This document shows positions 5,089 through 41,614 of a DNA stretch of 64,000 nucleotides, piece after piece (position 1 is the first letter of the stretch; each line of letters begins with the position of its first letter). The DNA is from an uncultured Verrucomicrobiae bacterium (lineage in GTDB: Bacteria; Verrucomicrobiota; Verrucomicrobiia; Limisphaerales; J093): positions 532 through 64,531 of the forward strand of contig CALJWR010000011.1 in NCBI GenBank assembly GCA_937976685.1. The letters run 5' to 3'. A program made the position numbers and the translations under genes. The notes under the pieces were generated by a model, which saw only the letters and a list, made by a program, of their open reading frames with translations, had not been told where the DNA came from and did not search any database.

Positions 5089-6036
5089 ATGCGGGCATCT
5101 CCCGGAAGACTCTCGCAGTTACAGCTCATCGCCTGGGTTCTGCTGGTATGCGGCGCCATCAACGCCGCCGCCGAAACCCTGCGCGTGATGACCTTCAACC
5201 TCTGGCACGGCGGGGATGCCGGGAAGCAGCCGCTTTCCCAGACCGCCACCGTCATTCGCGCCGCCGAGGCGGATGTTGTGGGTCTGCAGGAAACCCACGG
5301 CTGGGAACCGGCACCCGGCGCGCCGCGCCCTGACCACGGACGCAAGCTCGCCGACCTGCTCGGCTGGCACTACTTCGATCAGGGCGCGCGGACCGGCGTG
5401 CTCAGCCGGCACCCCGTTGTGACCAACTCCCCTGCCCGGTGGGGCGTCTCCGTCCGGCTGCCCTCGGGACGCGAGGTATGGCTGTTCAACGTCCACTTCG
5501 CCGCCGCGCCCTATCAGCCGTACCAACTTCTCGGCATCCCCTACTTCGACGCGCCGTTCCTCAAGACGCCCGAGGAGGCCATCCAAGCCGCACGGGCCGC
5601 ACGCGGTGGACAAGTGGACCGGATGTTGGCAGAGCTGGGTCCCGTCCTCGCCACCGGTCAGCCGGTCTTCCTGACGGGCGACTTCAACGAGCCTTCGCAT
5701 CAGGACTGGACACCCCGCGCCGCAGCCGCGGGCAAGTGTCCGCTGGCCGTGGACTTCCCGGCGACGCTGGCGGTCACGCGCGCCGGGATGAAGGACGCCT
5801 ACCGTGCCACCCATCCCGACGAAGTGGCCCGGCCGGGCTGGACTTGGACGCCGACAACCTCGCCGGACGACCCCAAGGACCGGCACGATCGAATTGACTT
5901 CGTTTTCGTCAGCGCCGCGAACACCTCGGTCACCCGCTGCCAAGTCGTTGGCGAATCAGCCGCCTTCGCCGACGTCGTCGTTCAGCCCTACCCTTCCGAC
6001 CACCGGGCAGTGGTGGCGACCGTGGAACTCCGCTGA
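5089..6036 (+). CDS. Endonuclease/exonuclease/phosphatase (EEP) family protein, secreted
   Basis: Signal peptide, then LRVMTFNLWHGG...ADVVGLQE...FLTGDFNE...DRIDFVF...SDHRAV, which are typical EEP motifs. Confidence 0.85.
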   Translation: MRASPGRLSQLQLIAWVLLVCGAINAAAETLRVMTFNLWHGGDAGKQPLSQTATVIRAAEADVVGLQETHGWEPAPGAPRPDHGRKLADLLGWHYFDQGARTGVLSRHPVVTNSPARWGVSVRLPSGREVWLFNVHFAAAPYQPYQLLGIPYFDAPFLKTPEEAIQAARAARGGQVDRMLAELGPVLATGQPVFLTGDFNEPSHQDWTPRAAAAGKCPLAVDFPATLAVTRAGMKDAYRATHPDEVARPGWTWTPTTSPDDPKDRHDRIDFVFVSAANTSVTRCQVVGESAAFADVVVQPYPSDHRAVVATVELR

Positions 6037-6171
6037 CCCGACGCCCTCGCTTTTCTGCCGGGCCGTTGCGAAGACCGGCAGCAAGACGGAAGGCGGATAA
6101 CGAATTGAGGCGGTAACCAACACCGCGCCCGGTTGACTCATTTCCGCACGCCGGTCCGCTGGTCAGGCCGA

Positions 6172-9100
6172 TCAGCCGGCGACCTGCCGCCGCTTGGACA
6201 ACTCGCCGGTCACGGCGTCGAACCAGGCCGCGTCAGGCAGGGCATAGGGCCGGAAGATTTCGAGCGAGCCGGCCGGCTCATTGAACAACAGGGCGCGGTG
6301 AAGACCGAGGCGGCTGGCGTCCGGCGAATCTACGAGGCTGGCGGAATCGTTGGCGCTCATCTGGAACAGGACGCGCCAGGCAAAGCTGGCCAGAGTCTTT
6401 CGTCCGAGAAACCGCCCCAGGCTGCTCCAGGTGTCGCCCGTGGCGATCACGTGGACGCCGTTCGCCGGACCTTCGGCAACGAGTTCCTGAAACTGGGGCG
6501 CCAGGTTCGCATCCGGATCCGAAGTCGTGGACGCAAACCCGTAGTCGTCCTCGCTGCGCAGCCGCTTGTAGAGCTGCAGGCCGTGAATAATGACAAACGT
6601 GATCGGCGCGTTCGTCCCCGGCCCAACAGGCTCTTGAACATTTCCGCCCGCACCAGCTTCGGATCGGCGCTTCACCCCGTCTGCCAAGCTTCGGATGACA
6701 GTCGGCACTTCGGCGGGTCCCGGGCGCGTGACCGGGTGTGGGACGGCCTCGATCAACCGATCCAGCAGCGAGCGTTCCCGCGACCCCGGCAGCGACGGAT
6801 CGAGCACAACAAAACGGGCCGAACCGGCCGGGTGTTGCGCCGCCAGCGCCACCAACGCGCAACACACCAGTGTGAAGGCCGCCTCGTCGCGCTGGCCGAC
6901 GATCAGGAGGTTGTTCCCCGCCTGCCACCGGAACAGCACCTCGGTGGGTCCCTTGATCGAGTTCGGCGCGCCCAGCCACACGCGGGAGATGGGCGGAGTG
7001 GCATCCGGCCTCTGTTCCAGCACTGCCGCCAGGTCTGGGTTTTCGATCACGTCGGCCGGCGCGTTCCCTTCGAAGACCATCGGCGCGGCCACGCGCGCCG
7101 AGGCCGCCTCCGCCCGCGCGCGAATCTCTGCCAGCCGCGCGTCGCGCTCGGCCTCCGGAAGCCAGACGGTCTGGAACGGGCTGTTCCCCTCGAGGGCACC
7201 GCCGGCGTCGTTGTAGATGCCCTCGCCCGGCCGCGACAACAGCCGCGGGGCGGGGTTGTTTTCGTCCATGATCAGGTAGGCGTCCGCCTCGTTACACTGC
7301 AGCGCGATGCGCACCACCATCTGCCCAAGCGTGGCGCGGGCCAGCGTGTAGGCGCCGCCGAGCGTTTGCGAACCCAGCAGCACGTGAATGCCAAACGCGC
7401 GACCCTGACGAACGATTCGATCCAGCAGCACGGCGGCGGACTGGGAAATCCGGTCCTCCTCCGTGAAGAACTCCTGAAATTCGTCAATGATCAGCAGCGT
7501 GCGAGGCAGGGACTCGCCCGTCGCGCGCCGATAGCCGGCGAGGTCTTGCACCCCTTGCGCCCGGAAGAGGTCGCCTCGACGCCGCAATTCATCGTCCACG
7601 CGCTGGAGCACACTGAGGCCAAAGTCCCGGTCGCTTTCGATCGCCACCACCCGCGCGTGCGGCAGCTTCCGAGTGGCGTAGCCCTTGAACTCGACGCCCT
7701 TCTTGAAGTCCACGAGGTAAAACTCCACCTCCGCCGGCGAGCACCAGGAGGCCAGATTCGTGATGAGCACGTGGAAGAGCGTGGATTTGCCGGAACCCGT
7801 CTTGCCGGCGATCAGGGCGTGCTGGCGCGTGCCCCGGCCCAGCGCGAAATACTGCAACTTCGTCGCGCCCGCGCGCCCGATGGGCACCCGGATCTCCTCG
7901 GTCGTGTCGAGCGACCAGAAAGCCTCCGGCAGCGGCGCGACCTGAGCGAAAGCGACTTCCACCCGGTTCGCGCCGCGCGATCGCTCGCCGACCCGTCGGA
8001 GAAACTCGCCGGTGAATTCCGGCGGCGGTGGCGGGTCGAGGATCAGGCGTGCGCCCGGCCACGGCGCGTCCGCCAGCGTCGGCACTTTGTTCGCTGCCAC
8101 CACCCGTACGCTCTGGCGTCGCAGCTCTTCGGCCACCCAGTCGTGCGGCAGCGGTTGACGCCGGTCCCACTGGATGAGCGTGAAGACGCCGCACCGCGCC
8201 CCGCTCGCAGCAATGTTCAACAACCGCCGCGCGGCCGCCTCGCTGAAGTTCACCGGAAAACCTGCGATTACGAGGACATGGTACTTCTCCGCGATGACGC
8301 CGGCCGCAGCGTTGTAGTCGGCGATCGTGGCGTATTCATCGCGCAGATACATCTGGATGACCTTCTCCATGTGCTCGCCGAGTTCGGCGAGGCGCTCCTC
8401 GATCTGCGCGGTCTGGGTCCAGATGCGGCCGTTGATGTTGTTGTCGTCGAAATCGGCCAGACGCATCAAACCCGCGAAGCTCTGCCCCAAGCCCACTGGA
8501 TCAATGATCGTGAAGCTCAGCTTGCCCGGGGGCGTGGCCGACAGCAGGCGAGCGATCACGTTGTTCATCGTCGCCACCGCTTCGGCGCCTCCTTCTTCGC
8601 CCGTCTCGAACAAGAGCGAACCCTGGTTCGGATAGCTCAGCAACAACGGCACGGACAGCATCGCCGGCAAATCCGCGCGGAAACGCCGCTCGGTCAACTC
8701 CCCCCCGCACAGCCGCTCGACCTCAACCTCAAGCCGGCCGAAGGGCGCGGCGTTACGGAACGTGGCGGGAGGTTCCCACGCCTGCCAGGCCGGGTCCGAC
8801 CACGCCGGAAACTCCCGGGCAACCGCTTCATTGGCCGCGCCCAGGGCGGCGAGCAGCGGCGACAGTTTTTGTCGTGCGCGCAGGTCGTAGTCCGCCAGGG
8901 CGTTGGCTTCGTCGGCCGCGATCCGGGCCTTGGCAGTGGCGAACTCCGCCTCGATCCGTTCCTGCTCCCGGAGCTGCGCCTCCGCACTGAGCGTGCCGGC
9001 CGCCGCGGCGCGCGCCTGCAGCATGGCCAGCCGGGACGCCAGTTGCGCGTCGTTACGTGCGGACGCCCGGTGCGCTTGCGCGTCCAATTCGCGGGGGTAC

Positions 9101-10104
9101 CGGGCGCGGAGTTCTTCCGCCCGCTCAACGGCCTCGCTCCACTCCTCACGCAGCCGGGCGGTCGTCTGTTCATACTCGCGCTCGATGCGCCGCTGTTCGT
9201 CACGATGCCGCTGTTCTGCCCGCTCCTTCGCGAGCGCGACTGCCCGGCGTGCTCCCGCCAGGTGCTCGGCCGTCGCCCTCGCCAGCGGCAGGGCCTGCCG
9301 GCGTGCCAGCAGAAACAGCCCGGTCACGGCAACAACCGATCCGCCGAAAGCCATTGCCACCTCGCGCCAAGCGAGGCCCGGGAGGCCAAAGTGCGGCAGC
9401 GCGCCAGCCGTGGCCGCGCCGAGTGCCGCCACGAGGAACCACAACCACAAGGGCATCGCGGCAAAAACCCGGGACAGGCGAAGGTGCTGAAACCGATCCA
9501 GAGCGGCCCCGGCGGCCGAGAGTTGGCCCTCTGCCTCGCCGAACAATGACTCCTCGTCAGCCTCTGGCGCAGCGGACGACACCGGCCATTCGCGATCCAA
9601 CAACCGAACCAACGCCCGGTCGCCGCGAAACACGTGCGCCGCCTCGGCGCCCATCTGCGCGGCTCTCTCTTCCGCCTCCAGACAACGCTGACGCACCTCG
9701 GCTAGACGCGCCGCCGCAGCGGCCGCATCGCTCTCCCGGCGCCGCTCCGCCCGCAACGCACCCTCCTGGACGCGGTATTTTCGCCGGCTTTCCTCCTGAT
9801 CCACGCGCTGGGTCGCCCGCCTTCGATCCGCCAGCAGGCCCTGCTCGATCAGCCGTTGCCGCGCCGCGTGAATGGCCCGAAAGCGAGCGGCCGCCTGCTC
9901 GTATTCCGCCCGTCGCGCTGCTTCGTCGCCGGAGAACCGAGCTTCGAGCTCCCGTAACGCGCTCGCGCGGACCTGTTCCACCGCCGCGAACTGTGCCGCG
10001 AAACCGGCGGCCAGCTCCGCCTCTTCCTGCGCCAACTCCCGCACCGTGGAGCGAAAACGCTCCACGAGGCCCAAGGCTTCCTTCACTCCGGGCAGATCAC
10101 TCAC
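6172..10104 (-). CDS. Membrane-anchored multi-domain FtsK/SpoIIIE-family ATPase, EssC/EccC-like (putative type VII-like secretion motor)
   Basis: 1310 aa. Coiled-coil aa 1-200, two TM helices about aa 216-267 (nt 9304-9459), second coiled coil aa 280-440. Degenerate P-loop-like domain (ETGEEGGAEAV; LVIAGF). Canonical domain with Walker A GKTGSGKST (nt 7780-7806) and Walker B LLIIDEF (nt 7477-7494). Third, degenerate domain (GQRDEAAFT; FVIIHGL). GTG start overlaps the upstream stop by 8 nt. Confidence 0.9.
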   Translation of the reverse strand: MSDLPGVKEALGLVERFRSTVRELAQEEAELAAGFAAQFAAVEQVRASALRELEARFSGDEAARRAEYEQAAARFRAIHAARQRLIEQGLLADRRRATQRVDQEESRRKYRVQEGALRAERRRESDAAAAAARLAEVRQRCLEAEERAAQMGAEAAHVFRGDRALVRLLDREWPVSSAAPEADEESLFGEAEGQLSAAGAALDRFQHLRLSRVFAAMPLWLWFLVAALGAATAGALPHFGLPGLAWREVAMAFGGSVVAVTGLFLLARRQALPLARATAEHLAGARRAVALAKERAEQRHRDEQRRIEREYEQTTARLREEWSEAVERAEELRARYPRELDAQAHRASARNDAQLASRLAMLQARAAAAGTLSAEAQLREQERIEAEFATAKARIAADEANALADYDLRARQKLSPLLAALGAANEAVAREFPAWSDPAWQAWEPPATFRNAAPFGRLEVEVERLCGGELTERRFRADLPAMLSVPLLLSYPNQGSLLFETGEEGGAEAVATMNNVIARLLSATPPGKLSFTIIDPVGLGQSFAGLMRLADFDDNNINGRIWTQTAQIEERLAELGEHMEKVIQMYLRDEYATIADYNAAAGVIAEKYHVLVIAGFPVNFSEAAARRLLNIAASGARCGVFTLIQWDRRQPLPHDWVAEELRRQSVRVVAANKVPTLADAPWPGARLILDPPPPPEFTGEFLRRVGERSRGANRVEVAFAQVAPLPEAFWSLDTTEEIRVPIGRAGATKLQYFALGRGTRQHALIAGKTGSGKSTLFHVLITNLASWCSPAEVEFYLVDFKKGVEFKGYATRKLPHARVVAIESDRDFGLSVLQRVDDELRRRGDLFRAQGVQDLAGYRRATGESLPRTLLIIDEFQEFFTEEDRISQSAAVLLDRIVRQGRAFGIHVLLGSQTLGGAYTLARATLGQMVVRIALQCNEADAYLIMDENNPAPRLLSRPGEGIYNDAGGALEGNSPFQTVWLPEAERDARLAEIRARAEAASARVAAPMVFEGNAPADVIENPDLAAVLEQRPDATPPISRVWLGAPNSIKGPTEVLFRWQAGNNLLIVGQRDEAAFTLVCCALVALAAQHPAGSARFVVLDPSLPGSRERSLLDRLIEAVPHPVTRPGPAEVPTVIRSLADGVKRRSEAGAGGNVQEPVGPGTNAPITFVIIHGLQLYKRLRSEDDYGFASTTSDPDANLAPQFQELVAEGPANGVHVIATGDTWSSLGRFLGRKTLASFAWRVLFQMSANDSASLVDSPDASRLGLHRALLFNEPAGSLEIFRPYALPDAAWFDAVTGELSKRRQVAG

Positions 10105-10309
10105 AGTCGTTCCTCACCCGGGTCAGCAGTTGGTCGAGTTTCTCCAGGACGCCCGCAGCGCGCTCGACTTGCGCCCGCAGTTCGCCGATATACCGCTGCT
10201 CGAACTCCACGGCCCGCGCATCGCGCCAGTGAGCTCGTGTGTCGTCCCAACCGATCATCAAGTCGCGGGTCAGCGCCATCAGACGCGCGCGGCTGGCGTT
10301 CACGCTCAT
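10097..10309 (-). CDS. Small helical protein, short WXG100-like hairpin (WxD variant)
   Basis: 70 aa with HWRDARAVEFEQRY at the predicted turn. ATGA overlap with the upstream gene and an 8-nt overlap with the ATPase gene. Confidence 0.6.
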   Translation of the reverse strand: MSVNASRARLMALTRDLMIGWDDTRAHWRDARAVEFEQRYIGELRAQVERAAGVLEKLDQLLTRVRNDCE

Positions 10310-10821
10310 GGGCGGGCCTCCTCACCGACCGCCGGCGGAGGTGATGGTGGCCGGACTTCGGCGTATGCCTCCAGCGTGGCGATCGCCTGGCCGAGGTCCG
10401 CGACCGCCGCCCCGAGGTCCGCGACCAGTAAGTGTTGAAGCTGGTCCAATTGTTTCAGGAGGGGATCGGCATGGTTCCCAAAATCCCGTCCCCAGCGGCG
10501 GACCCGCGCAAGCTTGTCCTCCGCCTCGCGCACCGCCTGCTCCGCCCGATGGACCGCCATCTGCAGGGCCGACGCCGGACCGCGCAGGGACGAAAGCCGT
10601 GCGCTCAGCAACTCTTGTTGCGCCTCCTCGAGTCGCCGCTGGCGGCGCCGCAGTTCCGCTTCCCAAAAAGCGCGCCGGTCCTGCTCCAGCCAGGCACGGG
10701 TCTGCGCGGCCTCGGTCTGAGCCTCTTCGAGTGCGGGCCGGGCCTTGCTCCGGTACGTGATGAGGTGCGACCGGAACGCCTCCAGCGCTTCGAGCGATGA
10801 GACATGAGCCTGTGTGGACAT
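10306..10821 (-). CDS. All-helical / coiled-coil hypothetical protein with a Pro-rich tail (putative T7-like accessory protein or substrate)
   Basis: 171 aa, rich in A/E/R/Q/L. Start lies 3 nt after the WXG100 gene stop (TAG CGC ATG). Stop overlaps the next ATG. Confidence 0.65.
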   Translation of the reverse strand: MSTQAHVSSLEALEAFRSHLITYRSKARPALEEAQTEAAQTRAWLEQDRRAFWEAELRRRQRRLEEAQQELLSARLSSLRGPASALQMAVHRAEQAVREAEDKLARVRRWGRDFGNHADPLLKQLDQLQHLLVADLGAAVADLGQAIATLEAYAEVRPPSPPPAVGEEARP

Positions 10822-10824
10822 GCG

Positions 10825-11097
10825 CTAACGCTGCCGGAGGTACTCCTCGATCCGCTGCGCCTTGCGCAACAAATAGGGCGCGTGCTGATTGGCGGACTCG
10901 ATGAATTTCTTCATCGCCTTCATCGTTTGCAGGAACTCTTCGCGAAACTTCTCGTGCTCCTGATCCTGCCACGTCTCACCCAACGCGGCGAACCGGGCCT
11001 GCAACAGGGCCATGCGATTTTGCAGATCGTTGTTGAAACGCTGCAATTCGTCGGCGAATCGCCGCACCTTTTCCGGATCCATGATTGCCTGAGCCAT
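10825..11097 (-). CDS. WXG100-family (EsxA/ESAT-6-like) protein, WxD variant
   Basis: 90 aa: MAQAIMDPEKVRRFADELQRFNNDLQNRMALLQARFAALGETWQDQEHEKFREEFLQTMKAMKKFIE... Helix-turn-helix length, central W-x-(G/D), and F..EF and KF spacing fit the WXG100 pattern. ATG 11097 chosen inside track ORF 10825..11511. GAAAGGA lies 9 nt upstream. Confidence 0.8.
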   Translation of the reverse strand: MAQAIMDPEKVRRFADELQRFNNDLQNRMALLQARFAALGETWQDQEHEKFREEFLQTMKAMKKFIESANQHAPYLLRKAQRIEEYLRQR

Positions 11098-11266
11098 CCC
11101 GCAGGTCCTTTCTCTTCGCGCCGCCCGCTGCCCGACGACCGACGGTAGCACAGCGGGTGCCGGGTTGGGAGCCGGATTCCCGCGCGCGGCCTTCAGCGGC
11201 GCGGTTCGATCATTCGCTACCGTGTCGCCTCGAATGTTGCTCCGGTGGGCCGGCGTCTGAAGAACC

Positions 11267-13138
11267 ATGACTCTGCGCTCTCTCCCCTGCTCCGCGGCGA
11301 TCCTCGCTGGGATACTCTCGTTCGCTCTCCCCGCCGCCGAACCAGCCCCGGAACTCGCCATCCCGTCCGCTTCGAACATCCTCTCCACGATCCGCGCCGG
11401 CCACCCCCGGCTGATCGTCAACGACGCTGACTTCACCGCCCTTCGCGCCCGCGTCAGCGAGGATCCCACGGCGCGGGACTGGTTTGCCAGGCTCAAGACC
11501 GAAGGCGACAAGCTGCTGTCTGCCCCACCCTCCTCCTACGAGATCCCCGACGGCGTGCGCCTCCTCAGCACCAGCCGCCGGGTCCTTTTGCGCGTCCAGA
11601 CACTCGCGCTGCTCCGTCATCTGACCGGCGACACGAATTACACCCGGCGCGCCGGGCTGGAACTGGAGGCCGCCGCCGCCTTTCCGGACTGGAACCCCCG
11701 TCACTTCCTCGACACGGCGGAAATGACCCACGCCTTTGCGATCGGATACGACTGGCTTTTCCACGACTGGACGCCCGCAACCCGCGAACGGCTGCGGACG
11801 GCGATGGTGGAGAAGGGATTCCGGCCGGCCCTCGAAGTGTACCGCAAGAACTCGAGCTGGACGCGCGCCCGGCACAACTGGAACCAGGTCTGCAACGGCG
11901 GGATGGGCTTGGGCGCGCTGGCGCTGGCAGAGGTTGAACCGGAACTGGCCGGCAAAATCCTCTCCGGCGCGTTGACGAGCCTGCAACTGCCGATGCGGGA
12001 ATTCGCGCCCGACGGCGCCTGGGCCGAAGGCCCCGGCTACTGGAATTACGCCACCACCTACACTTGCGCCATCCTCGCGGCGGTCGAATCCGCGCTGGGA
12101 ACCGATTTCGGCCTGGGCGCGATGCCGGGGTTCGCGGACGCCGGCCTCTTTCCGATTTACCTGACCGGCCCGCTGGGCCGCACCTTCAACTACGCCGACG
12201 GGGGCGACGGCACGATCCGGGCGCCGCATTTGTTCTGGATGGCCCACCGCTTTGGCCGTCCCGCCTACGCGGCCTACCAGCGCGCGGTGGCTTCGCCGCA
12301 CCCGCTGGACCTGGTCTGGTGGCGGCCGGAATTTGCATCGGCAGTGCGCGACGACCTGCCCCTGAACAAGCACTTCCGCGCGGCGGAGGTGGTCACCTTC
12401 CGCAATCGCTGGGGCGATCGGAACGCCCTGTTCGTCGGGTTCAAAGCCGGCGACAACAAGGCCAACCACAGCAATCTCGATCTCGGATCCTTCGTGCTCG
12501 ACGCGCTGGGCGTCCGCTGGGTGGTGGACCTTGGCGCGGACGATTACAACCTGCCGGGTTATTTCGGCGCAAAGCGCTGGACCTACTACCGAATGCGCGC
12601 CGAAAGCCATAACACCCTGGTCCTGAATCCAAGCACCGAACCCGACCAAGACCCCAGCGCGGCCGCCCGGATCACTGCCTTCGAGCCCAATCCAAGGCGG
12701 GCTTTTGCGGAGGCCGACCTGACTCCCGCGTATGCACGCCACGCCCGGCAGGTCACGCGACGGCTGACCGTTGCGGACGGCAACCGCGTCGTCATCCGTG
12801 ACCGCGTCCAGGCGCATTCGCCCGCCCAGCTCTGGTGGTTCTTGCACACCCGCGCCGGGGTGAAGCTGTCCGACGACTCCCGCGAAGCGATGCTGACGCA
12901 GGATGGCCAACGACTGCGCGCCCGCGTGGCCGAGCCGCCCGAGGCGACGTTCGCACTCATGGACCCCCAACCTCTGCCATCGTCACCCCGGACTGAAAAG
13001 CAGCACGCGAATGAAGGTGTCCGGAAGCTGGCGATCCAGATCGCGAACGTCCGCGACCTGCGGTTGACCGTGATCCTCACCCCATTGGCCGCCGGCCAGA
13101 ATCCGCCGGCGCTCGATTCGCTGGACCTGCGGGATTGA
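11267..13138 (+). CDS. Heparinase II/III-family polysaccharide lyase-like protein (secreted)
   Basis: Signal peptide. HPRLIV...DW...NHNWNQVCNGGMGLGALAL...GYWNYAT...HSNLDLGSFVLDALGVRWVVDLG, which is heparinase II/III-like. Confidence 0.85.
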   Translation: MTLRSLPCSAAILAGILSFALPAAEPAPELAIPSASNILSTIRAGHPRLIVNDADFTALRARVSEDPTARDWFARLKTEGDKLLSAPPSSYEIPDGVRLLSTSRRVLLRVQTLALLRHLTGDTNYTRRAGLELEAAAAFPDWNPRHFLDTAEMTHAFAIGYDWLFHDWTPATRERLRTAMVEKGFRPALEVYRKNSSWTRARHNWNQVCNGGMGLGALALAEVEPELAGKILSGALTSLQLPMREFAPDGAWAEGPGYWNYATTYTCAILAAVESALGTDFGLGAMPGFADAGLFPIYLTGPLGRTFNYADGGDGTIRAPHLFWMAHRFGRPAYAAYQRAVASPHPLDLVWWRPEFASAVRDDLPLNKHFRAAEVVTFRNRWGDRNALFVGFKAGDNKANHSNLDLGSFVLDALGVRWVVDLGADDYNLPGYFGAKRWTYYRMRAESHNTLVLNPSTEPDQDPSAAARITAFEPNPRRAFAEADLTPAYARHARQVTRRLTVADGNRVVIRDRVQAHSPAQLWWFLHTRAGVKLSDDSREAMLTQDGQRLRARVAEPPEATFALMDPQPLPSSPRTEKQHANEGVRKLAIQIANVRDLRLTVILTPLAAGQNPPALDSLDLRD

Positions 13139-18513: not shown

Positions 18514-19404
18514 ATGCCGCTCCTCACCGCCGATCTGCTGCGCCGCCTCGAGCAACTCCAACTGCTCGCGCAGCGACGCGCCCGGAGCGTCTCGCGCGGC
18601 GAACGCCGCAGCCGCGCCCGCGGCCAGTCGGTCGAGTTCGCCGATCACCGCAATTACGTCTTCGGCGACGATCTCCGCTACCTGGACTGGAACCTGTACG
18701 GCCGGCTGGATCGCCTTTTCCTCAAGCTCTACGAGGAGGAACGCGAACTGCCGGTCCGCATCTTCCTCGATGCCTCGGAATCCATGGCGTTTGGGGAACC
18801 GGTGAAGTTCGACTTCGCGCGTCAGGTGGCGGCGGCCGTGGGCTACGTGGCGCTCTGCGGCTTTGACCGCGTCACCATCCTCCCGTTCCCCGAGAATCGC
18901 GACGAAGCCGTCGCGCGAAGCGGCCTGCGCGCCGTGCGCGGACGCCGGTCCGCGATGGGGATGTTCCAAAACCTCGCCCAACTGACAGCCCGGGGCGCGG
19001 CGGACCTGAACGCGGCGCTCCGCCGCGGCGCCATCGAAGCGCGTCAGACCGGCCTGGCCATCGTCCTCAGCGATTTTCTCGATCCGGCGGGTTACGAAAC
19101 GGGCCTCGACGCGCTCGTCGGACGCGGCTTCCAGGTGGATGTGGTTCACATTCTCGCCCCGGAGGAATTGGCACCGACCATCTATGGCGACCTGCGGCTG
19201 GTGGACTCCGAGACCGGGGCGCAGCAGGAGGTGACCTTCGGCAAGTACCGGCTCGCGGCGTATCAACGGACCGTGCAGGCGTTTTGTCAGCGGCTGCGGG
19301 AGTACTGCGCCGGGCGCGGGATCACGTACTTCCTCGCCAGCAGCGCGACCCCGCTGGCGGACCTGCTGCTCAAACAACTGCGCGCGGCCGAGGTGTGGCG
19401 ATGA
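18514..19404 (+). CDS. DUF58 domain protein (MoxR-associated)
   Basis: GQSVEFADHRNYVFGDDLRYLDWNLYGRLDRLFLKLYEEE. ATG 18514 preferred over the track's TTG at 18496. Confidence 0.85.
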   Translation: MPLLTADLLRRLEQLQLLAQRRARSVSRGERRSRARGQSVEFADHRNYVFGDDLRYLDWNLYGRLDRLFLKLYEEERELPVRIFLDASESMAFGEPVKFDFARQVAAAVGYVALCGFDRVTILPFPENRDEAVARSGLRAVRGRRSAMGMFQNLAQLTARGAADLNAALRRGAIEARQTGLAIVLSDFLDPAGYETGLDALVGRGFQVDVVHILAPEELAPTIYGDLRLVDSETGAQQEVTFGKYRLAAYQRTVQAFCQRLREYCAGRGITYFLASSATPLADLLLKQLRAAEVWR

Positions 19405-21236
19405 GCTTTCTGGCCCCCATGGCGTTCGCGTTCGCCGCCGCGATCCCGGTGGTGGTCCTGTTTTACCTCCTCAAGCGCAAGCGGGTGGTGAAGCTCGTCT
19501 CGAGCACGCTGCTCTGGCAGAAGTTCCTCGCCGAGTCCCAGGCCAGCGCGCCGTTCCAGAAGCTCCGCCACAACTGGCTGCTGGTCCTCCAACTCCTGCT
19601 CCTCATCCTCGTCATCCTGGCGCTGGCACGGCCCTTCTTCGCGGGCGAAATCAAGGGCGGTCGCCTCCTGGTTGCGATCCTCGATGCCTCGGCCTCAATG
19701 CAAAGCACCGACGAAGCCCCCACGCGCTTCGAGAAAGCCCGCCGCGAGGCGCTCGCGCTGGTGGACAACCTCACCGACACCGACCAGATGGTGGTGCTGC
19801 TGGCCGGCGGCAACACCGAGGTGAAACAGTCGCCCACCAGCAGCAAGGCCGCCTTGCGCCGCGCGTTGCAGACGGCCCTGCCGTCCGACTCCCCCACCCG
19901 GCTCACCGAGGCCCTCAAGCTCGCTCAGCCGCTGGTGCGCGATCGTGTCGGCGGCGAGATTCACCTGTTCAGCGACGGCGCCGTCAGCGGGCTGGAGGAA
20001 TTCGAGTTTGAAGGGCTGAACGTGGTCTTTCACCGCGTCGGGCAGCGCGCGGAAAACGCCGGCATCGTCACGCTCGATGTGCGCTCGAACCCCGAGGACC
20101 CCACGCGCCGGGCCCTTTTCACGAGCGTTTTCAACGCGTCGAGCAACGTGGTCCGGACCGAACTTGAATTGCTGCTCGATGGGCAACTGGTCGAGGCCCG
20201 GCCCGTCGAACTCCCCCCGCGTGAGACCCTGCCGGAGGTGTTCTTTGCGGGCCAGACCAACGACGGCGTGTTCACCGTGCGGCTCGCCAACCCGGACGAT
20301 TTGGCCGCCGACAACGAAGCCTCAATTGTGAGCCTGCTGCCCCAGCCTGCGCGGGTGCTGCTGGTGAGCCGCGGCAACCGCTTCTTGGAACGGGCGCTGG
20401 CCGCTGTGCCGTCGGCCGAGGTGACCGTCGTCACTGACCTCGCGGAAGCCGCCGCTGACTTCGACATCACGGTGCTGGACGACGTGCTGCCCACCGCGTG
20501 GCCATCGAACAACGTGCTGGCCATTCGCAGCGCGCCAACGAACTGGGTCGAGATCACCGGCCGCACCGAAGCCCCGGCCATCGTGGATTGGAGAACCACA
20601 CACCCGCTGCTGCGCTTCGTCACCTTCGACAACGTGCAAATCTCGGAGGCGTTGACCGTGGTGCCGCCGGGCTGGGCCACGCCGATCGTCGAGGCGCCCG
20701 GCGGCCCGTTGATCCTCGCCGGCGAGATCGGCCGCCAGCGCGTCGTCTGGCTCGCGTTCGACACGCTTCAGAGCACCTGGCCCCTGCGGGTGTCGTTCCC
20801 CATCTTCATCGCCAACGTTCTCGACTGGTTGAACCCGGTCACCGCCCGCGCCGCGCAATTCCTCGTCCAGGCCGGCGCGCCGCTGCGCCTGCCCCTGGAC
20901 GGCACCGTCACCAACGCGGTGGTCCGGCTCCCCAACGGCGAGGAACGCCGGTTGACGCTCGACCCGGCCGCGCGCGAGCTGGTCTTCGGCGAGACCAGCC
21001 ACCGGGGCGTGTACCGGATCGAGCTCGGCAACCGCCGCTTTACCTTCTGCGCCAACCTGCTCGACGCTCCGGAAACGGACACCAGGCCGCGGCCGGAAGT
21101 TCGCTTCGGCAAGTACGCGGCGGTCGCGGCCGCCGAAGCCCGTCCGGCGAACGTGGAAATCTGGCGCTGGATCGCCCTGGCCGGGCTGGCGATCCTGATG
21201 TTCGAGTGGTGGTTCTACCACAAGCGCACGGCATGA
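19401..21236 (+). CDS. BatA-N-terminal / VWA domain membrane protein
   Basis: MSFLAPMAFAFAAAIPVVVLFYLLKRKR..., VWA MIDAS-like DASASM, and a C-terminal TM helix. ATGA overlap with the DUF58 stop. Confidence 0.8.
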   Translation: MSFLAPMAFAFAAAIPVVVLFYLLKRKRVVKLVSSTLLWQKFLAESQASAPFQKLRHNWLLVLQLLLLILVILALARPFFAGEIKGGRLLVAILDASASMQSTDEAPTRFEKARREALALVDNLTDTDQMVVLLAGGNTEVKQSPTSSKAALRRALQTALPSDSPTRLTEALKLAQPLVRDRVGGEIHLFSDGAVSGLEEFEFEGLNVVFHRVGQRAENAGIVTLDVRSNPEDPTRRALFTSVFNASSNVVRTELELLLDGQLVEARPVELPPRETLPEVFFAGQTNDGVFTVRLANPDDLAADNEASIVSLLPQPARVLLVSRGNRFLERALAAVPSAEVTVVTDLAEAAADFDITVLDDVLPTAWPSNNVLAIRSAPTNWVEITGRTEAPAIVDWRTTHPLLRFVTFDNVQISEALTVVPPGWATPIVEAPGGPLILAGEIGRQRVVWLAFDTLQSTWPLRVSFPIFIANVLDWLNPVTARAAQFLVQAGAPLRLPLDGTVTNAVVRLPNGEERRLTLDPAARELVFGETSHRGVYRIELGNRRFTFCANLLDAPETDTRPRPEVRFGKYAAVAAAEARPANVEIWRWIALAGLAILMFEWWFYHKRTA

Positions 21237-21246
21237 CTTCCACTGC

Positions 21247-22218
21247 ATGAACCGGGGAGCGAACGATTCGGGTGCTATCCGTCGCGCCAACGGCTGGGTG
21301 TGGCTGGCCGTCGGCGCGGCGCTCGTTGTCCTGGGCTGGCCGCTGCTGAAGCTGCGCTCGACCGCCACCAATCTGGTCGTGTACGCCGCGCAGGACCAGG
21401 TCTATGCCGAGCCCTTGCTCGCCGACTTCACCCGGGAAACCGGGATCCGCGTGCGCGCGGTGTACGACAGCGAGGCGGCGAAGACCGTCGGCCTCGCCAA
21501 CCGGCTCCTGGCGGAGCGCAAACGTCCCGTCTGCGACCTGTTCTGGGGCAACGAGGAGTTGCGCGTCCGTCAGCTCGCGGCGCGCGGCGTCTGGCGCGAG
21601 ACCAACGCGTGGGCTGCCTTTGGCTGGCGGAGCCGGCGCGTGATGATCAACACCCATCACGTGGCGCCAGCCGGGGCTCCGACGACGCTCGCCAGCTTGA
21701 CGAACGCCGCCTGGCGGGGGCGCGTCGCCCTCGCCTATCCCCTCTTTGGCACCACCGCAACGCACTTTCTGGCTTTGCGCCAGCATTGGGGCGAAGCCGC
21801 TTTTGAAGCATGGTGCCGGGCCCTCGTCGCCAACCGCGCGCTCGTGGTGGACGGCAACTCGGTCGTGGCACGGCTCGTCGCCCGGGGTGAGGCGTGGATT
21901 GGCTTGACCGACTCGGATGACATCGCGGCCGTGCGACGGGAGGGGGCGCCTGTGGTGGCGTTGCCGCTCACCGACGAAACGCTGCTGATTCCGAACGTGG
22001 TCGCCATCACCCGGGGCGCGCGGCGAGAACGAAGCGCCAACGTGTTGTTTGAGTGGCTCCAACGGCCGGCTACCGTGCGGCGACTGGTCGAATTGGGAGC
22101 GCTGGAAGGAGCCGACCTCGCCGACGCGCGGGTTGCCGGGTTGCGCCCGGACTGGGACCAACTCGTCGCCGAGATCGAGCCCGGCACCGCCCGTCTGCGG
22201 AACCTTTTCCTCCGGTGA
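21247..22218 (+). CDS. ABC transporter periplasmic substrate-binding protein (FbpA/AfuA iron(III)- or thiamine-type)
   Basis: LVVYAAQDQVYAEPLLADFTRETGIRVRAVYDSEAAKTVGLANRLLAE...DLFWGNEE. N-terminal TM/signal anchor. Confidence 0.7.
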   Translation: MNRGANDSGAIRRANGWVWLAVGAALVVLGWPLLKLRSTATNLVVYAAQDQVYAEPLLADFTRETGIRVRAVYDSEAAKTVGLANRLLAERKRPVCDLFWGNEELRVRQLAARGVWRETNAWAAFGWRSRRVMINTHHVAPAGAPTTLASLTNAAWRGRVALAYPLFGTTATHFLALRQHWGEAAFEAWCRALVANRALVVDGNSVVARLVARGEAWIGLTDSDDIAAVRREGAPVVALPLTDETLLIPNVVAITRGARRERSANVLFEWLQRPATVRRLVELGALEGADLADARVAGLRPDWDQLVAEIEPGTARLRNLFLR

Positions 22219-33276: not shown

Positions 33277-34704
33277 TCAGCGGGCTGCGTGAGCGATGAT
33301 TCGTCCATCCGCGGCCACCAATTCGAAGTCCAAGCCCAGCCGCCCGTCCGCGTGCGTCGAACAGCTCAGGCAAGGATCGTAGCAACGAATGCCGGCTTCC
33401 ACCCGATTGAGCATCGGTTCGGGGATCTCCCCCGTCGTCGCCTGAATGTAGTGCCGGGCGATTTGGGCGACCGTCCGATTCATGGCCAGGTTGTTCTGGC
33501 CGGTGGCGATGATGAGGTTGACCCCGCGAATCAATCCCTCCTCGCTGACGTGATAGTGGTGAAGCAGGGTCCCCCGCGGCGCCTCGCTGGCCCCCACGCC
33601 TTCCAGATTGTTGATGCCGGCGTCCGCGCGCAGATGGCTGCCCAGCAGATCGGCGTCTTCCACCATCTGACCAATGCGCTCGATGGCTCCGAGGATTTCG
33701 ATCAAGCGGGCGTAATGGTAGAGGAACGATGAGTTCACCGCCCCGCGACCGTAACGCCGGAACCGCTCCAGTTCCGCATCCGCAAGCGGCGTGCCCATGC
33801 GCCGACAGACGTTCAAGCGGGCCAGCGGCCCAACGCGGTAGAGGCCGTCCGGATAACCCATCGGCTTGTAGAACGGCGATTTCAGGTACGAGTCAGATTC
33901 GACGGCTTCGCCGATCACCTCGCGATAGCGAGAGACTTCGACGTGGTCCGCGATGACATTGCCGCTGGCGTCCACGAACCGGAAGTGGCCGTCGTAGTGC
34001 TCCCACAGACCGTCGTCGTTTGCGAGTCCCATGAAGAGGGATGGGAAGTTGCCAAAGACCTGCGTCTCCCGCTCGTGCTTCTGAAGCACATCGCGGAACA
34101 ACTGGATTGCCGCCTGGGTCGAGGCCAGGGCCTCCGGCAGCCACGCCTTGATGCGTGCCCGCCCTTCTTCAGTGAGGGGTTCGCGCACGCCGCCGGGAAC
34201 CGCCCACGCCGGATGAATCTTGCGCCCGCCGAGGATCTCGATCACCTCCTGCCCAAACTGCCGCAAACGAATGCCGGCGCGAGCGAGGTCGGGATTGCGG
34301 GCCGCCAAACCGAAAACGTTCCGGCTGGCCGGTGGGGTTTCCCAGCCGAGCAGGAAATCCGGCGAACTGAGATGGAAAAAGCTCAAGGCATGGCTCTGGA
34401 CAATCTGGCCGAGATTCATCAAGCGCCGGAGTTTTGCCGCGGTGGGCGGAATGCTCACCGCCAGAATCGCATCGCACGCCTTGGCGGACGCCAGCAGATG
34501 GCTGACCGGGCAGATGCCACAGATGCGGGGCGTGATGCCGGGCATTTCGCCCAGCGGCCGGCCCTCGCAGAACTTCTCGAAGCCGCGGAACTCAACGACG
34601 TGGAATTTCGCGTCGGCGACGTTTCCGGCGTCGTCGAGAAAGATGCTGATCTTGGCATGCCCCTCGATGCGGGTCACGGGGTCAATGACGACTCTTCGGG
34701 TCAT
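33277..34704 (-). CDS. hoxH: Bidirectional NAD-coupled [NiFe]-hydrogenase large subunit HoxH (group 3d)
   Basis: [17 protein letters not shown]-terminal [11 protein letters not shown]-terminal [10 protein letters not shown] followed by a 23-aa extension. ATG 34704. Confidence 0.92.
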
Positions 34705-34814
34705 AGGAGCAAAGGGCGAGGGGCGCGACCTGGCGGGCAACCAGGCGGGGCCGGCCAAGCTGTCGCCTGGCAGGGTCACGCGTGGCGCCACCGATGTCGG
34801 ATAGCGGGGTCATC

Positions 34815-36061: not shown

Positions 36062-36077
36062 GGGAGTCCTTTCGCGT

Positions 36078-37712: not shown

Positions 37713-38232
37713 GGCGCAACCATCCTTTCACGATTTCGAGCGCGCTTTCAGGGGTCTGTCGCGCGGTGACGACCCCGTCGTAAACCACCGCTGGCGCAAT
37801 GCCGCAAGCCCCGATGCACCGGGCGGTGGCCAGCGAAAACTTCCCATCCTCCGTTGTTTCACCGGCCTTGATGCCAAACTCCTCCTCCAGCGCGGCCACC
37901 ACCTTGTCCGCCCCTTTCACGTAGCAGGCGGTGCCCATGCAGATCACGCAGGAATGGGCGCCTTTCGGTTTGAGGTTGAAGAAATGGTAGAAGGTCGCGA
38001 CCCCGAAGACGCGGCTGGGCGGCAGCCGGAGATGGTGCGCGATGTGCCGCATCAGGTCGTGATCGAGGAACCCGAACAACTCCTGCGCCCGGTGGAGCAC
38101 TTCGATCAAGGCATCCTGCCGATACTGGAAACGCTTCATCTGCGTCTCCAAAATCTTGTACCGCTTGTCGCCCGCGGCTGTTGGCGGGGTCGAAGCGCTG
38201 ACCCGGTTTCTTGACTTCGCGAGTATCATCAC
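37702..38232 (-). CDS. hoxE: Diaphorase 2Fe-2S subunit HoxE (NuoE-like)
   Basis: [36 protein letters not shown]...[10 protein letters not shown]...CIGACGIAP. Confidence 0.9.
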
Positions 38233-38930: not shown

Positions 38931-38933
38931 GAG

Positions 38934-39424: not shown

Positions 39425-39425
39425 A

Positions 39426-39950: not shown

Positions 39951-39959
39951 CGTGACGTC

Positions 39960-41595: not shown

Positions 41596-41614
41596 ACTTC
41601 TCGGACTTCGGACT

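Follow-up and report, generated by a model that had tools for sequence, protein, structure and literature searches.

Solo WXG genes accompanied by an ATPase of three domains, of which the middle one is active, have already been listed in Verrucomicrobia (Zhang et al. 2012). The architecture had been noted in Verrucomicrobia even earlier by Sutcliffe (2011), as cited in PMC6471051, and the same ATPase type was described by Bell et al. (2024). The pair of WXG protein and ATPase has been termed a minimal or mobile T7SS (Zhang 2012; Uchiyama 2016; Bell 2024). Relatives of the cassette studied here are found in two further settings. One is H. pylori HP0062, for which published work reports a link to HP0066, an FtsK-like gene. 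The CoCoNuT-linked operons are also relatives; their ATPases have no N-terminal membrane segment, and a different mechanism is considered likely for forms without transmembrane domains (Bell et al. 2024). In type VIIb systems, EsxA is conserved and required for toxin export (PMC13355648).

We analyzed a four-gene locus in a 64-kb stretch of DNA, the whole of which is called the window. The locus is, with high confidence, a stand-alone chromosomal member of the family that combines a solo WXG100 protein with a three-domain EssC-like ATPase in which only the middle domain is active. That family in turn is very probably a minimal type VII secretion relative outside Gram-positive bacteria. The novelty implied by the first-pass annotation of this DNA was overstated, as the kind is known from Zhang et al. 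(2012), Sutcliffe (2011), and Bell et al. (2024).

Layout and distribution of the cassette

The cassette consists of four tightly coupled genes that run from 11097 to 6172 in the order WXG100, P171, P70, ATPase (Table 1). All four minus-strand ORFs are present at the coordinates given on the first pass, and direct reading of the sequence gives the same junctions, as follows. A gap of 3 nt separates the WXG gene from the P171 gene (tag-cgc-ATG), the P171 and P70 genes overlap by 4 nt (ATGA), and the P70 and ATPase genes overlap by 8 nt (GTGAGTGA). The GTG start of the ATPase gene and its ribosome-binding site, GAGGAA, lie inside the last P70 codons. The four genes show translational coupling, which is counted in support of the best explanation discussed below.

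Table 1. Positions of the cassette genes, ATPase segments, and neighbors in the window.
Feature	Position	Strand	Remarks
Exo_endo_phos gene	5089-6036	+	flank of cassette
ATPase gene	6172-10104	-	1310 aa, GTG start
ATPase domain C, aa 991-1310	6175-7134	-	degenerate FtsK-like domain
ATPase domain B, aa 726-990	7135-7929	-	middle domain; PF01580 match aa 759-914
ATPase domain A, aa 433-725	7930-8808	-	degenerate FtsK-like alpha/beta domain
ATPase aa 271-432	8809-9294	-	second variable region, A/R/E-rich, 22% identity across orthologues
ATPase aa 211-270, transmembrane hairpin	9295-9474	-	helices ~214-237 and ~248-268, loop ~10 aa
ATPase aa 1-210	9475-10104	-	variable N-terminal region, A/R/E/L-rich
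P70 gene	10097-10309	-	70 aa
P171 gene	10306-10821	-	171 aa
WXG gene	10825-11097	-	90 aa, ATG start
Intergenic region, divergent	11098-11266	.	169 bp, between WXG gene and heparinase-like gene; read from sequence
Hepar_II_III_C gene	11267-13138	+	flank of cassette; heparinase-like

The flanking genes are on the opposite strand, as claimed, and match the Exo_endo_phos and Hepar_II_III_C domains. The cassette flanks hold no EccB/D/E/MycP or EssA/EssB/EsaA domain, in agreement with the absence noted earlier. The divergent intergenic region is presumed to be the cassette promoter region; no sigma-70 consensus was found in it.

The host, assigned on the first pass as probable to the PVC group, is a verrucomicrobium, its closest relatives (96–97% identity) being named 'Verrucomicrobia bacterium'. 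A search for four-gene synteny, which had been proposed as a check, found the cassette conserved across Verrucomicrobiota. The identical order on one strand occurs at about 70 of 80 related genome loci, nearly all from this phylum. The neighbors differ from locus to locus. Because the order recurs with unrelated flanks, the arrangement is not due to chance. Within the phylum the cassette seems to have been inherited more or less vertically, a pattern suggestive of a house-keeping-like role. Across the related loci, neither a fifth gene nor a partner membrane protein is conserved beside the cassette.

An EccC-like ATPase with one competent domain

The ATPase matches PF01580 in two stretches (104 bits). 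Its best NCBIfam matches are EccCa, EccCb, and EssC, all far under their cut-offs, with 107 bits for EccCa versus 27 bits for FtsK. By sequence, the best PDB match is T. curvata EccC (4nh0, 3.6e-32), with FtsK at about 1e-9. Foldseek of the AlphaFold2 domain model (pLDDT 86.3) places 4nh0 on top (8.6e-33), followed by 4n1a, 4lya, and 5fv0, with FtsK behind at about 1e-14. Thus, the affinity to EccC/EssC rather than to DNA translocases, as first annotated, holds by both sequence and fold, and a DNA translocase reading is disfavored. The model aligns with the three-domain chain of 4nh0 over 961 columns, an alignment taken to cover domain A as modelled. An alignment of the 76 full-length orthologues extends over the entire protein; identity of the whole ATPase to its relatives is 44–58%. 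With a plasmid relative, the ATPase core shares 31% identity over 787 aa (E 2e-80), a homology that is counted in favor of the best explanation.

[quoted passage not shown] In domain A, a motif census finds Walker A missing (PPGKLSFTIIDPVGLGQSF) and Walker B without its acidic residue (HVLVIAGFP). In domain C, LLIVGQRDEAA replaces Walker A and FVIIHGLQ replaces Walker B, while FQMSANDS and FRPY are conserved. No PDB relative was found by sequence for domain A (phmmer) or for domain C. Domain B has Walker A as GKTGSGKS (aa 767–774, window 7783–7806) and Walker B as IIDEFQEF (aa 872–879, window 7468–7491). Both motifs are invariant in all 76 orthologues, and the domain shows 79% identity across the family. 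Judged by these motifs, domain B is the sole catalytically competent ATPase domain. By its resemblance to EccC D3, domain C is a candidate for substrate docking; the analogy reportedly stems from the work of Rosenberg et al. in 2015 (PDB 4n1a).

The N-terminal 210 residues (A 22%, R 16%, E 14%, L 10%) show only 23% identity across orthologues, yet are present in all, and would form a cytoplasmic coiled coil; ATPases of this type are described as starting with a coiled coil longer than 200 aa (Bell et al. 2024). The membrane anchor claimed on the first pass is seen as two hydrophobic helices (aa ~214–237 and 248–268), with Kyte–Doolittle 19-mer values of 2.0 and 2.1. K/R residues number 3 and 5 in the flanks and 1 in the loop, a positive-inside pattern from which an N-in/C-in topology is predicted. 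The second variable region may be a coiled-coil stalk linking the membrane to the ATPase domains.

The hairpin is kept in 72 of 76 orthologues and is cleanly deleted in a Prosthecobacter subclade (L075–L078 and L082), where the small genes are kept at four of the five loci and L077 has a P70 match only. The Caballeronia plasmid ATPase, unlike that of the window, has no N-terminal membrane segment. These hairpin-less forms, together with the CoCoNuT-linked ATPases, are counted against secretion.

Three small helical proteins

The 90-aa protein was correctly assigned to WXG100: it passes the Pfam gathering threshold of 27.3 (43.8 bits, E 3.2e-11), and its family profile matches the solved WXG100 hairpins H. 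pylori HP0062 (3fx7, 4.9e-12), B. anthracis EsxB (1.9e-7), and S. aureus EsxA (1.5e-4). The turn motif is W-Q-D (LGETW43-Q-D45) rather than W-x-G. NCBIfam TIGR03930 gives 34.0, under its cut-off of 44.85. None of the curated cut-offs for EccC, EssC, and TIGR03930 is reached, which is counted against the best explanation. The 74 homologues are all 89–90 aa long and 41–82%, mostly 62–82%, identical to the window copy, with conservation reaching the last residue of the C-terminus (PYLLRKAQRIEEYLRQR). This conservation is similar to that of ATPase domain B and exceeds that of the whole ATPase. Such a pattern is more in line with a machine part or a regulator than with a rapidly evolving effector.

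P70 is probably a divergent short WXG100-like partner, soluble and helical. Residues W20, W27, D29, F35, and C68 are invariant, and the motif is WRDAxxxEF. The top PDB matches of its profile are the WXG100 proteins 4lws, 2vs0, and 2vrz, at a non-significant E of 0.2–0.8. Pfam WXG100 is matched by 5 of 75 members (best 8.7e-4) and WXG100_2 by 2 of 75 (5.9e-5). When the P70 HMM was run on the window ORFs, the WXG ORF came second (E 0.0014), and hhalign aligned the W motifs of the two proteins (P 0.0086).

P171, annotated as helical, is indeed so and is more precisely one long hairpin: the AlphaFold2 model (pLDDT 91.4) predicts antiparallel helices 2–76 and 83–155, followed by a Pro-rich, disordered tail. 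The protein is soluble, with no hydrophobic segment. The family comprises 2,479 clusters (50% identity) at E<=1e-3; no Pfam family was matched, and the Foldseek matches in the PDB were generic coiled coils, none of them with E<1e-3. The sequences of the small proteins lack the canonical YxxxD/E export motif, a further point against secretion.

The P171 position is occupied differently in some relatives. In a Helicobacter plasmid cassette, a helical N-domain is fused to a WHH nuclease and is followed by a SUKH immunity gene; an exported polymorphic toxin is laid out in this way, and the arrangement is counted in favor of the best explanation. The Caballeronia plasmid relative, found in a TerY-P/CARF/VWA/kinase context, has a 436-aa protein without a Pfam match, and the CoCoNuT-linked operons have a coiled-coil–nuclease fusion (Bell et al. 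2024).

Secretion and its alternatives

The best explanation overall, to which we give about even odds, is a minimal type VII-like cassette with ATPase-driven handling of a small-protein bundle. The mechanism we propose for it, tentatively and with slightly less than even confidence, is as follows. In the cytoplasm, the WXG100 protein, P70, and P171 would come together as a helical bundle, as the toxin-targeting complexes of type VIIb systems also do. FtsK-family motors are hexamers, and the ATPase would likewise be hexameric, held in the inner membrane by its two-helix hairpin and hanging on coiled-coil stalks. A degenerate end domain, with domain C as the candidate, may dock the bundle. ATP hydrolysis in domain B would then bring all or part of the bundle up to the inner membrane or across it into the periplasm. 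The cassette has no gene for a component that crosses the outer membrane; the route may therefore end in the periplasm or at the membrane. A hexamer would place just 12 helices in the membrane, with loops of only some 10 aa, which counts against the secretion mechanism, and no experiment showing secretion by any family member was found in the literature searched.

In view of the Prosthecobacter clade and the Caballeronia relative, a non-secretory role is possible, though rather unlikely. The cassette would then be a machine for remodelling, signalling, or conflict that works in the cytoplasm or close to the membrane. The active domain of the hexamer would thread, unfold, or reposition the complex of three helical proteins, which would be adaptors or regulators rather than cargo, and the hairpin would be a tether only. 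The persistence of hairpin-less versions, the different mechanism that Bell et al. (2024) consider likely for such forms, the absence of a conserved membrane or outer-membrane partner, the very high WXG conservation, and the roughly vertical inheritance all speak for it. Against it are the well-formed hairpin of most orthologues and the Helicobacter nuclease toxin with its immunity gene, which makes sense only if the toxin leaves the cell. In addition, the cassette has no effector enzyme, and PADLOC defence models gave no match beyond generic FtsK/HerA. To our knowledge, every characterised WXG100 and EssC/EccC pair (T7SSa, T7SSb) is an export system.

The cassette could also export effectors or toxins whose genes lie elsewhere in the genome, a reading that we consider improbable. 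The cassette proteins would then be core parts or co-secreted chaperones like type VIIb EsxA, and the true cargo, encoded at other loci, would begin with a WXG-, LXG-, or P171-like region. The role of EsxA in toxin export (PMC13355648) and the proteins at the P171 position in Helicobacter, Caballeronia, and the operons of Bell et al. are in keeping with this, and high WXG conservation suits a machine part. However, WXG, P171, and P70 are each without a further paralogue in the 64-kb window, the related loci give no second WXG match, and no toxin–immunity pair is conserved near the cassette across those loci. The best 150 P171 relatives are all 112–237 aa long, too short to include a fused toxin domain.

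It is highly improbable that the ATPase translocates DNA in conjugation, chromosome segregation, or DNA uptake (FtsK/SpoIIIE/TraB/TcpA-like), with the WXG-like genes incidental: PF01580 is common to DNA pumps and FtsK and TcpA are among the weaker sequence and fold matches, but EccC/EssC score far better, three tandem domains with one active replace a single motor, no FtsK gamma or relaxase-related domain is matched in Pfam or NCBIfam, linkage to WXG100 is strict at about 70 loci, and relatives are absent from viral contigs and found in only three plasmid records over the WXG100 and domain-A searches. Two of these records have a WXG100 relative and two a domain-A relative, Caballeronia having both.

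Organization of the cassette

The cassette consists of four genes on the minus strand, which encode a WXG protein, the proteins P171 and P70, and an EssC/EccC-like ATPase. Read off the sequence, the junctions are as follows: a 3-nt gap between the WXG and P171 genes (TAG-cgc-ATG), a 4-nt overlap between those of P171 and P70 (ATGA), and an 8-nt overlap between those of P70 and the ATPase (GTGAGTGA), the GAGGAA ribosome-binding site for the ATPase being placed inside the last P70 codons. Thus, the four co-directional, tightly coupled ORFs described in the first-pass annotation stand. So do its opposite-strand flanks, an EEP phosphatase and a heparinase-like lyase, as the flanking ORFs match Exo_endo_phos and Hepar_II_III_C in Pfam and both lie on the plus strand. 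That annotation also reported no EssA/EssB/EsaA or EccB/D/E/MycP homologue alongside, and no such Pfam match is present among the flanking ORFs. GC content is uniform throughout the cassette region, and promoter and terminator scans of the region gave nothing informative. Antisense to the ATPase gene runs a long ORF, a shadow of the kind that DNA of 67–69% GC typically has; shadow ORFs over cassette genes recur in related loci.

Coordinates of the cassette genes, their surroundings and the related loci discussed in the text (L-numbers denote related genome loci)
Feature	Sequence	Position	Strand	Remarks
WXG gene, 90 aa	window	10825-11097	-	ATG start
P171 gene, 171 aa	window	10306-10821	-	
P70 gene, 70 aa	window	10097-10309	-	
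ATPase gene, 1310 aa	window	6172-10104	-	GTG start
P70 D-C-E codons with ATPase ribosome-binding site and start	window	10097-10110	-	
Exo_endo_phos gene (flank)	window	5089-6036	+	Pfam on flanking ORFs
Hepar_II_III_C gene (flank)	window	11267-13138	+	Pfam on flanking ORFs
Shadow ORF, 1138 aa	window	6133-9549	+	antisense to ATPase gene
BatA/VWA gene run	window	19284-27529	+	
Energy-metabolism cluster	window	33277-50123	-	
Hairpin-less ATPase genes	L075-L078	~7263-10937		
Hairpin-less ATPase gene	L082	3836-7453		
Insert in cassette	L008	6121-7986		
Insert in cassette	L023	2068-7938		
Insert in cassette	L035	7313-7986		
Insert in cassette	L028	3063-3966		
FtsK-like ATPase locus (P0009)	L004	5317-10350		
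Caballeronia cassette	L086	11267-24264		VWA on both sides, then CARF, PP2C phosphatase, Ser/Thr kinase, AAA genes
Helicobacter cassette	L087	9001-13403		WHH/colicin-DNase and SMI1/KNR4 (SUKH) domains

The four products

The WXG protein scores 43.8 bits with the Pfam WXG100 profile PF06013, against a gathering threshold of 27.3 (E 3.2e-11; residues 6–85 on profile positions 4–83 of 86), and 34.0 bits with NCBIfam TIGR03930, under the cut-off of 44.85. Among solved structures, a profile of 74 orthologues best matches Helicobacter pylori HP0062 (3fx7; 4.9e-12, full length 1–89). B. anthracis EsxB (1.9e-7), S. aureus EsxA (1.5e-4) and two group B streptococcal proteins (~6e-4) are also matched, all over their full length. 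By these profile matches, the 90-aa protein is a WXG100-family member, as had been claimed, and the alignments to solved WXG100 hairpins predict a helix-turn-helix hairpin fold. The turn reads W43-Q-D45, not W-x-G; all 74 homologues share W43 and D45. A W-x-D turn is also found in HP0062 (WRD), and a Helicobacter plasmid homologue has TWGD. A hydropathy scan found no hydrophobic segment in the protein and, by the same token, no Sec signal peptide. The gene is linked to an FtsK-like ATPase gene in ~70 loci.

For the ATPase, the closest sequence in the PDB is T. curvata EccC (3.6e-32), followed by ESX-5 EccC5 and YukB, with FtsK and TcpA at ~1e-9. An AlphaFold2 model of residues 433–1310 (pLDDT 86.3, pTM 0.72) has three tandem alpha/beta domains: A (aa 433–725), B (aa 726–990) and C (aa 991–1310). 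With this model Foldseek places EccC 4nh0 first (8.6e-33, 961 aligned columns), then EccC D2-D3 4n1a and EssC 4lya and 5fv0, with FtsK behind at ~1e-14. Thus, both sequence and fold group the ATPase with EccC/EssC rather than with DNA translocases, as proposed at first pass. NCBIfam scores are 107.4 bits for TIGR03924 EccCa (cut-off 509), 99.3 for TIGR03925 EccCb (cut-off 346.6), 81.5 for TIGR03928 EssC (cut-off 778.4) and 27 for FtsK.

A motif census of 76 full-length orthologues indicates that the only Walker A (GKTGSGKS, aa 767–774) is in domain B, together with the Walker B IIDEFQEF, and that A and C are degenerate throughout the set. Because searches with domains A and C alone had zero matches to PDB sequences, their FtsK-like nature is read from the AlphaFold2 model and the motifs. 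Domains A, B and C may correspond to the DUF, D1 and D2-3 of EccC, or to D1, D2 and D3; in NCBIfam comparisons domain B resembles both active domains about equally. The N-terminus is a variable, A/R/E-rich region of 210 aa. It is followed by two hydrophobic helices (~214–237 and 248–268) with a ~10-residue loop and positive-inside flanks, and then by a second A/R/E-rich region; from their composition, both A/R/E-rich regions would be coiled coils. The predicted transmembrane hairpin (aa 214–268) and the three modelled domains agree with the earlier description of a membrane-anchored, multi-domain FtsK/SpoIIIE ATPase. Pfam detects no FHA domain. To summarize, within the FtsK family the ATPase falls in the secretion branch, with a layout of its own.

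P171 is modelled by AlphaFold2 (pLDDT 91.4) as one long antiparallel hairpin, with helices 2–76 and 83–155 and a Pro-rich tail. It has no Pfam family: across 74 members, Pfam returns just coiled-coil noise, including YscO in 5 members. The P171 profile found nothing significant among PDB sequences, and Foldseek had zero matches to the model below 1e-3, that is, no specific structural relative. An exhaustive profile search gathered 2,479 clusters at E<=1e-3, with 1,685 at <=1e-10. The best 150 relatives are all 112–237 aa long, lengths that could not accommodate a fused toxin domain.

P70 likewise has no Pfam family assignment. Three of the four best matches of its profile in the PDB are EsxA/EsxB proteins (E 0.2–0.8), and members weakly touch Pfam WXG100 (5 of 75) and WXG100_2 (2 of 75). 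When the P70 HMM was run over the window ORFs, the WXG ORF ranked second (E 0.0014). In hhalign, WXG and P70 have their W motifs aligned, with a weak P of 0.0086; the P for WXG with P171 is also weak, at 0.0022. These alignments suggest that P70 is probably a short WXG100-like protein.

The near-invariant D-C-E at the P70 C-terminus is encoded where the ATPase gene has its ribosome-binding site (GAGGAA) and GTG start. Its conservation may reflect the nucleotide level (translational coupling), the protein level (an export signal) or both. A 280-aa metagenomic protein, P0236, is an apparent P171–P70 fusion. We do not count it as evidence of interaction, as its Arg-rich linker resembles a frameshift; a frameshift or a gene-calling error at the ATGA overlap is its probable origin.

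Distribution, conservation and a hairpin-less clade

An initial protein search returned few full-length ATPase relatives, and a one-genome-per-species scan found at least 507 stretches encoding them. The best 80 of these are 44–64% identical to the window ATPase and are nearly all labelled Verrucomicrobiota, from many orders; the labels include Limisphaerales, Pedosphaera, Chthoniobacterales, Prosthecobacter, Akkermansiaceae, Luteolibacter, Haloferula, Roseibacillus and Methylacidiphilales. Among the 80 there are also a few labelled Phycisphaerales, Victivallales or Omnitrophota, or with implausible bin labels. The host is a verrucomicrobium, in line with the Verrucomicrobia-like host suggested at the outset: relatives 96–97% identical carry the name 'Verrucomicrobia bacterium'. 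Eight contigs (L014, L015, L024, L043, L044, L045, L051 and L084) are labelled Acidobacteria-type SMAG, Klebsiella, Bifidobacterium or Bacteroidetes. Their cassettes are of typical verrucomicrobial type, with ATPases 47–51% identical that cluster inside verrucomicrobial groups; the odd labels probably come from MAG records that were mislabelled or misbinned, and not from horizontal transfer.

In 86 sequences (the window and 85 related loci), WXG is present in 74, P171 in 74, P70 in 75 and the ATPase in 83, in the same order and on the same strand, and missing genes are mostly from loci cut by a contig end. The four-gene synteny that the first-pass annotation proposed to look for is thus kept, nearly always in Verrucomicrobiota. 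No further gene cluster is common to more than 8 of the ~83 loci, and the flanks differ in each contig inspected. It follows that the cassette is self-contained. A few genomes have inserts of 0.7–5.9 kb that split the small genes from the ATPase gene, or P171 from P70, so the tight gene coupling is not absolute. The two that were checked for cargo, between the small genes and the ATPase gene in L023 (an HNH_2 endonuclease) and L008 (a 7TMR-DISM-like protein), hold unrelated opposite-strand genes.

Identity to the window copy is typically 62–82% for the WXG protein (41–56% in the most distant), ~28–54% for P171, ~31–54% for P70 and 44–58% for the whole ATPase. Within the latter it is 79% for domain B, 53% for domain A, 48% for domain C and ~22% for the coiled-coil-like and membrane regions. 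UPGMA on identities of the ATPase core, a crude test, gives clusters that roughly track taxonomy, which suggests mostly vertical inheritance within the phylum. IMG/VR viral contigs contain no cassette relatives, and PADLOC on the cassette gave generic FtsK/HerA matches alone. The locus L004, on a high-GC contig, was considered as a distant variant and rejected: its 877-aa FtsK-like ATPase is 29% identical and is found in a different context with no WXG match. The arrangement there is different, with genes of 127, 86 and 327 aa upstream and one of 230 aa downstream, all without a family.

The membrane hairpin of the ATPase is kept in 72 of 76 orthologues. A clean deletion removes it from five independent assemblies of Prosthecobacter type (L075–L078 and L082), leaving a ~80-residue gap and a top hydropathy of 0.9–1.4. 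Four of these five loci retain WXG, P171 and P70; L077 has a P70 match alone. L049, labelled 'Prosthecobacter debontii', keeps the hairpin. Going by the 72 of 76, anchoring is the rule in the phylum; this deletion, together with a Caballeronia ATPase without an N-terminal membrane segment, indicates that it is nevertheless dispensable for retention of the cassette.

Relation to known systems and possible function

Type VIIb systems of Bacillota consist of EssC, EsxA, EsaA, EssA, EssB and EsaB (YukD), and include LXG toxin and Lap1/Lap2 targeting complexes. Type VIIa (ESX) systems of Actinomycetota consist of EccB, EccC, EccD, EccE, MycP and EsxA/B. The ATPases of both carry Walker A motifs in D1 and D2, EccC having a third in D3; N-terminal FHA domains are found in EssC only.

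The cassette resembles type VIIb in pairing a WXG100 protein with a membrane-bound multi-domain FtsK-family ATPase, in encoding small helical partners beside a longer helical-hairpin protein, and in having EssC 4lya and 5fv0 among the top folds. It differs in that FHA, EsaA, EssA, EssB and EsaB (YukD) are absent by Pfam on the cassette and flanks and by the shared-gene survey. In addition, the ATPase has one nucleotide-binding domain and an EssC score far below the cut-off (81 against 778 bits), P171 has neither a toxin domain nor a Pfam family, and the host is a diderm. In common with type VIIa are the best sequence and fold match (T. curvata EccC), two membrane helices in the N-terminal region, with tandem P-loop domains behind them, and upstream genes for small WXG100 proteins. 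In contrast, no EccB, EccD, EccE or MycP lies beside the window ATPase, whereas a canonical ESX locus, L005, shows these domains. The 210-aa extension before the hairpin, the lack of a YxxxD/E motif in the small proteins and the low EccCa/EccCb scores (107/99 against 509/347 bits) set the cassette further apart, and an alignment of its ATPase with P0010, a canonical EccC, covers 40% of the query at 25% identity.

A closer relative is known. Zhang, de Souza, Anantharaman, Iyer and Aravind described a solo WXG with a distinct YueA-like ATPase of three HerA/FtsK domains, the middle one active, and explicitly listed Verrucomicrobia as carriers (Zhang et al. 2012, Biol Direct 7:18, Table 1 footnote 6). 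An ATPase of this type also adjoins type III-A CoCoNuT/TerY-P systems; there, the central domain alone is active of three, the N-terminal coiled coil exceeds 200 aa, no transmembrane domain is present, and the operons encode two WXG100 proteins, one without the motif, and a coiled-coil–nuclease fusion (Bell et al. 2024, eLife 13:RP94800). We consider it very probable that the cassette is a stand-alone, membrane-anchored member of this family of solo WXG proteins with three-domain, middle-active EssC-like ATPases. The window cassette shares with it the three tandem FtsK-like domains with the central one alone active, the adjacent solo WXG100 gene, the long N-terminal coiled-coil-like region and, probably, a second small motif-less WXG-like protein, P70. 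It differs as follows. A two-helix membrane hairpin splits the coiled-coil region, whereas the CoCoNuT-linked forms are described without TM domains; the second gene encodes a bare 171-aa hairpin in place of a coiled-coil–nuclease fusion; no DNA-mimic or immunity gene is present; and the cassette is chromosomal and stand-alone, with an ATPase tree that is roughly taxonomic and not mobile-looking.

Two plasmid cassettes have the same gene order as the window. On pSBC2-5 of Caballeronia sp. SBC2, the order is VWA–WXG–436 aa–113 aa–76 aa–ATPase–CARF–VWA–PP2C–kinase, the TerY-P/CoCoNuT-type context of Bell et al. 2024. The ATPase, without an N-terminal TM segment, is 31% identical to that of the window over 787 aa (domains A–C; E 2e-80), and 40% identity is seen for the WXG protein, whose LGDTWQD turn matches the W-Q-D of the window protein. 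The 436-aa second gene product has no Pfam match. On a plasmid of Helicobacter sp. NHP19-012, the order is WXG–340 aa–SUKH immunity–77 aa–823-aa FtsK-like ATPase. The 340-aa protein has a helical N-terminal part and a WHH/colicin-DNase nuclease at its C-terminal end; this is a polymorphic toxin layout. Thus, the second position holds a toxin in Helicobacter and a bare hairpin in Verrucomicrobia. As hhalign of the P171 and P70 profiles with the same-position Caballeronia and Helicobacter proteins detected no homology, the link is one of positional analogy alone.

HP0062 (PDB 3FX7, 2GTS) is reported in the literature as an ESAT-6-like protein clustered with the FtsK/SpoIIIE-family gene HP0066 in Gram-negative H. 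pylori. Of the solved structures it matches the WXG profile best, and it shares the W-x-D turn (WRD for WQD). In contrast, its host belongs to Campylobacterota, and the related Helicobacter plasmid ATPase is shorter (823 aa), with toxin and SUKH present. WXG100 proteins have been noted in Verrucomicrobiae (Sutcliffe 2011, as cited in PMC6471051), and WxG with FtsK has been called 'a minimal set' of T7SS (Uchiyama et al. 2016). Our literature search found no experimental study of any family member, ATPase-dependent WXG100 export included. Since the architecture and its occurrence in Verrucomicrobia are already in the literature, the cassette is not new as a kind. As far as we found, the additions made here are the definition of the cassette as a conserved set of four genes, its distribution through the whole phylum, which looks vertical, the family of P171 hairpins, a probably WXG-like P70 and a natural hairpin-less subclade.

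The first-pass annotation holds up in both its description and its reading, and the cassette is a real, well-conserved system and not an artefact. We suggest that the three soluble helical proteins would assemble into a bundle, that the bundle would dock on one of the degenerate domains of the ATPase hexamer, and that the single active domain would move it to or across the inner membrane. As a whole, this mechanism is offered tentatively, as quite possible; the cassette encodes nothing to account for passage through the outer membrane. The main rival is a non-secretory machine of which the WXG proteins are working parts. Such a machine would suit the hairpin-less forms, the extreme degree to which the WXG protein is conserved and the lack of any membrane protein as a partner, but it sits poorly with the toxin–immunity layout of the Helicobacter relative and with the general retention of the hairpin (72/76), and we think it unlikely while taking it seriously.

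Rather unlikely, in our estimate, is an ancient four-gene machine, vertically inherited across diderm Verrucomicrobiota, that does something unlike any characterised type VII system. It may export via a single-component inner-membrane translocon, P171 and the WXG-type proteins building an envelope-spanning or periplasmic structure. Alternatively, it may be a cytoplasmic ATP-driven remodelling device with WXG100 proteins as working parts and not cargo, an option raised by the clean hairpin loss in one clade; if true, it would give the WXG100/EssC pair a new function. For the docking and translocation of a helical bundle, a variant with the true cargo encoded elsewhere in the genome is improbable. 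A DNA translocase (FtsK/SpoIIIE/TraB/TcpA) is rejected on the three domains against a single motor, the FtsK score of 27 against 107 bits for EccCa, and the absence by Pfam of a gamma DNA-recognition domain.

Type VII secretion is still described, in parts of the review literature, as a system of Actinomycetota and Bacillota. Here, both of its hallmark parts are found in a cassette of four genes, compact and strongly conserved, that hundreds of species in a Gram-negative-type phylum carry and that has no other membrane or outer-membrane component. Should the cassette export proteins, no simpler type VII-like translocon would be known, and it would help to find out what the pathway minimally requires; otherwise, WXG100 proteins do a second job that is not secretion. 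The hairpin-less clade provides a built-in natural comparison, and cultivable Verrucomicrobia make the function testable. Two unannotated protein families, P171 (~2,500 clusters) and P70, are defined as well.

Elsewhere in the window, a BatA/VWA gene run (BatA_N with VWA_2; NHL-repeat; VWA with GATase1-like) resembles the Bat aerotolerance operon. Farther along, an energy-metabolism cluster encodes a NiFe-hydrogenase large subunit, Oxidored_q6, the Nuo51 FMN-binding subunit, NADH dehydrogenase subunit 1, a proton-antiporter M subunit and a molybdopterin oxidoreductase.
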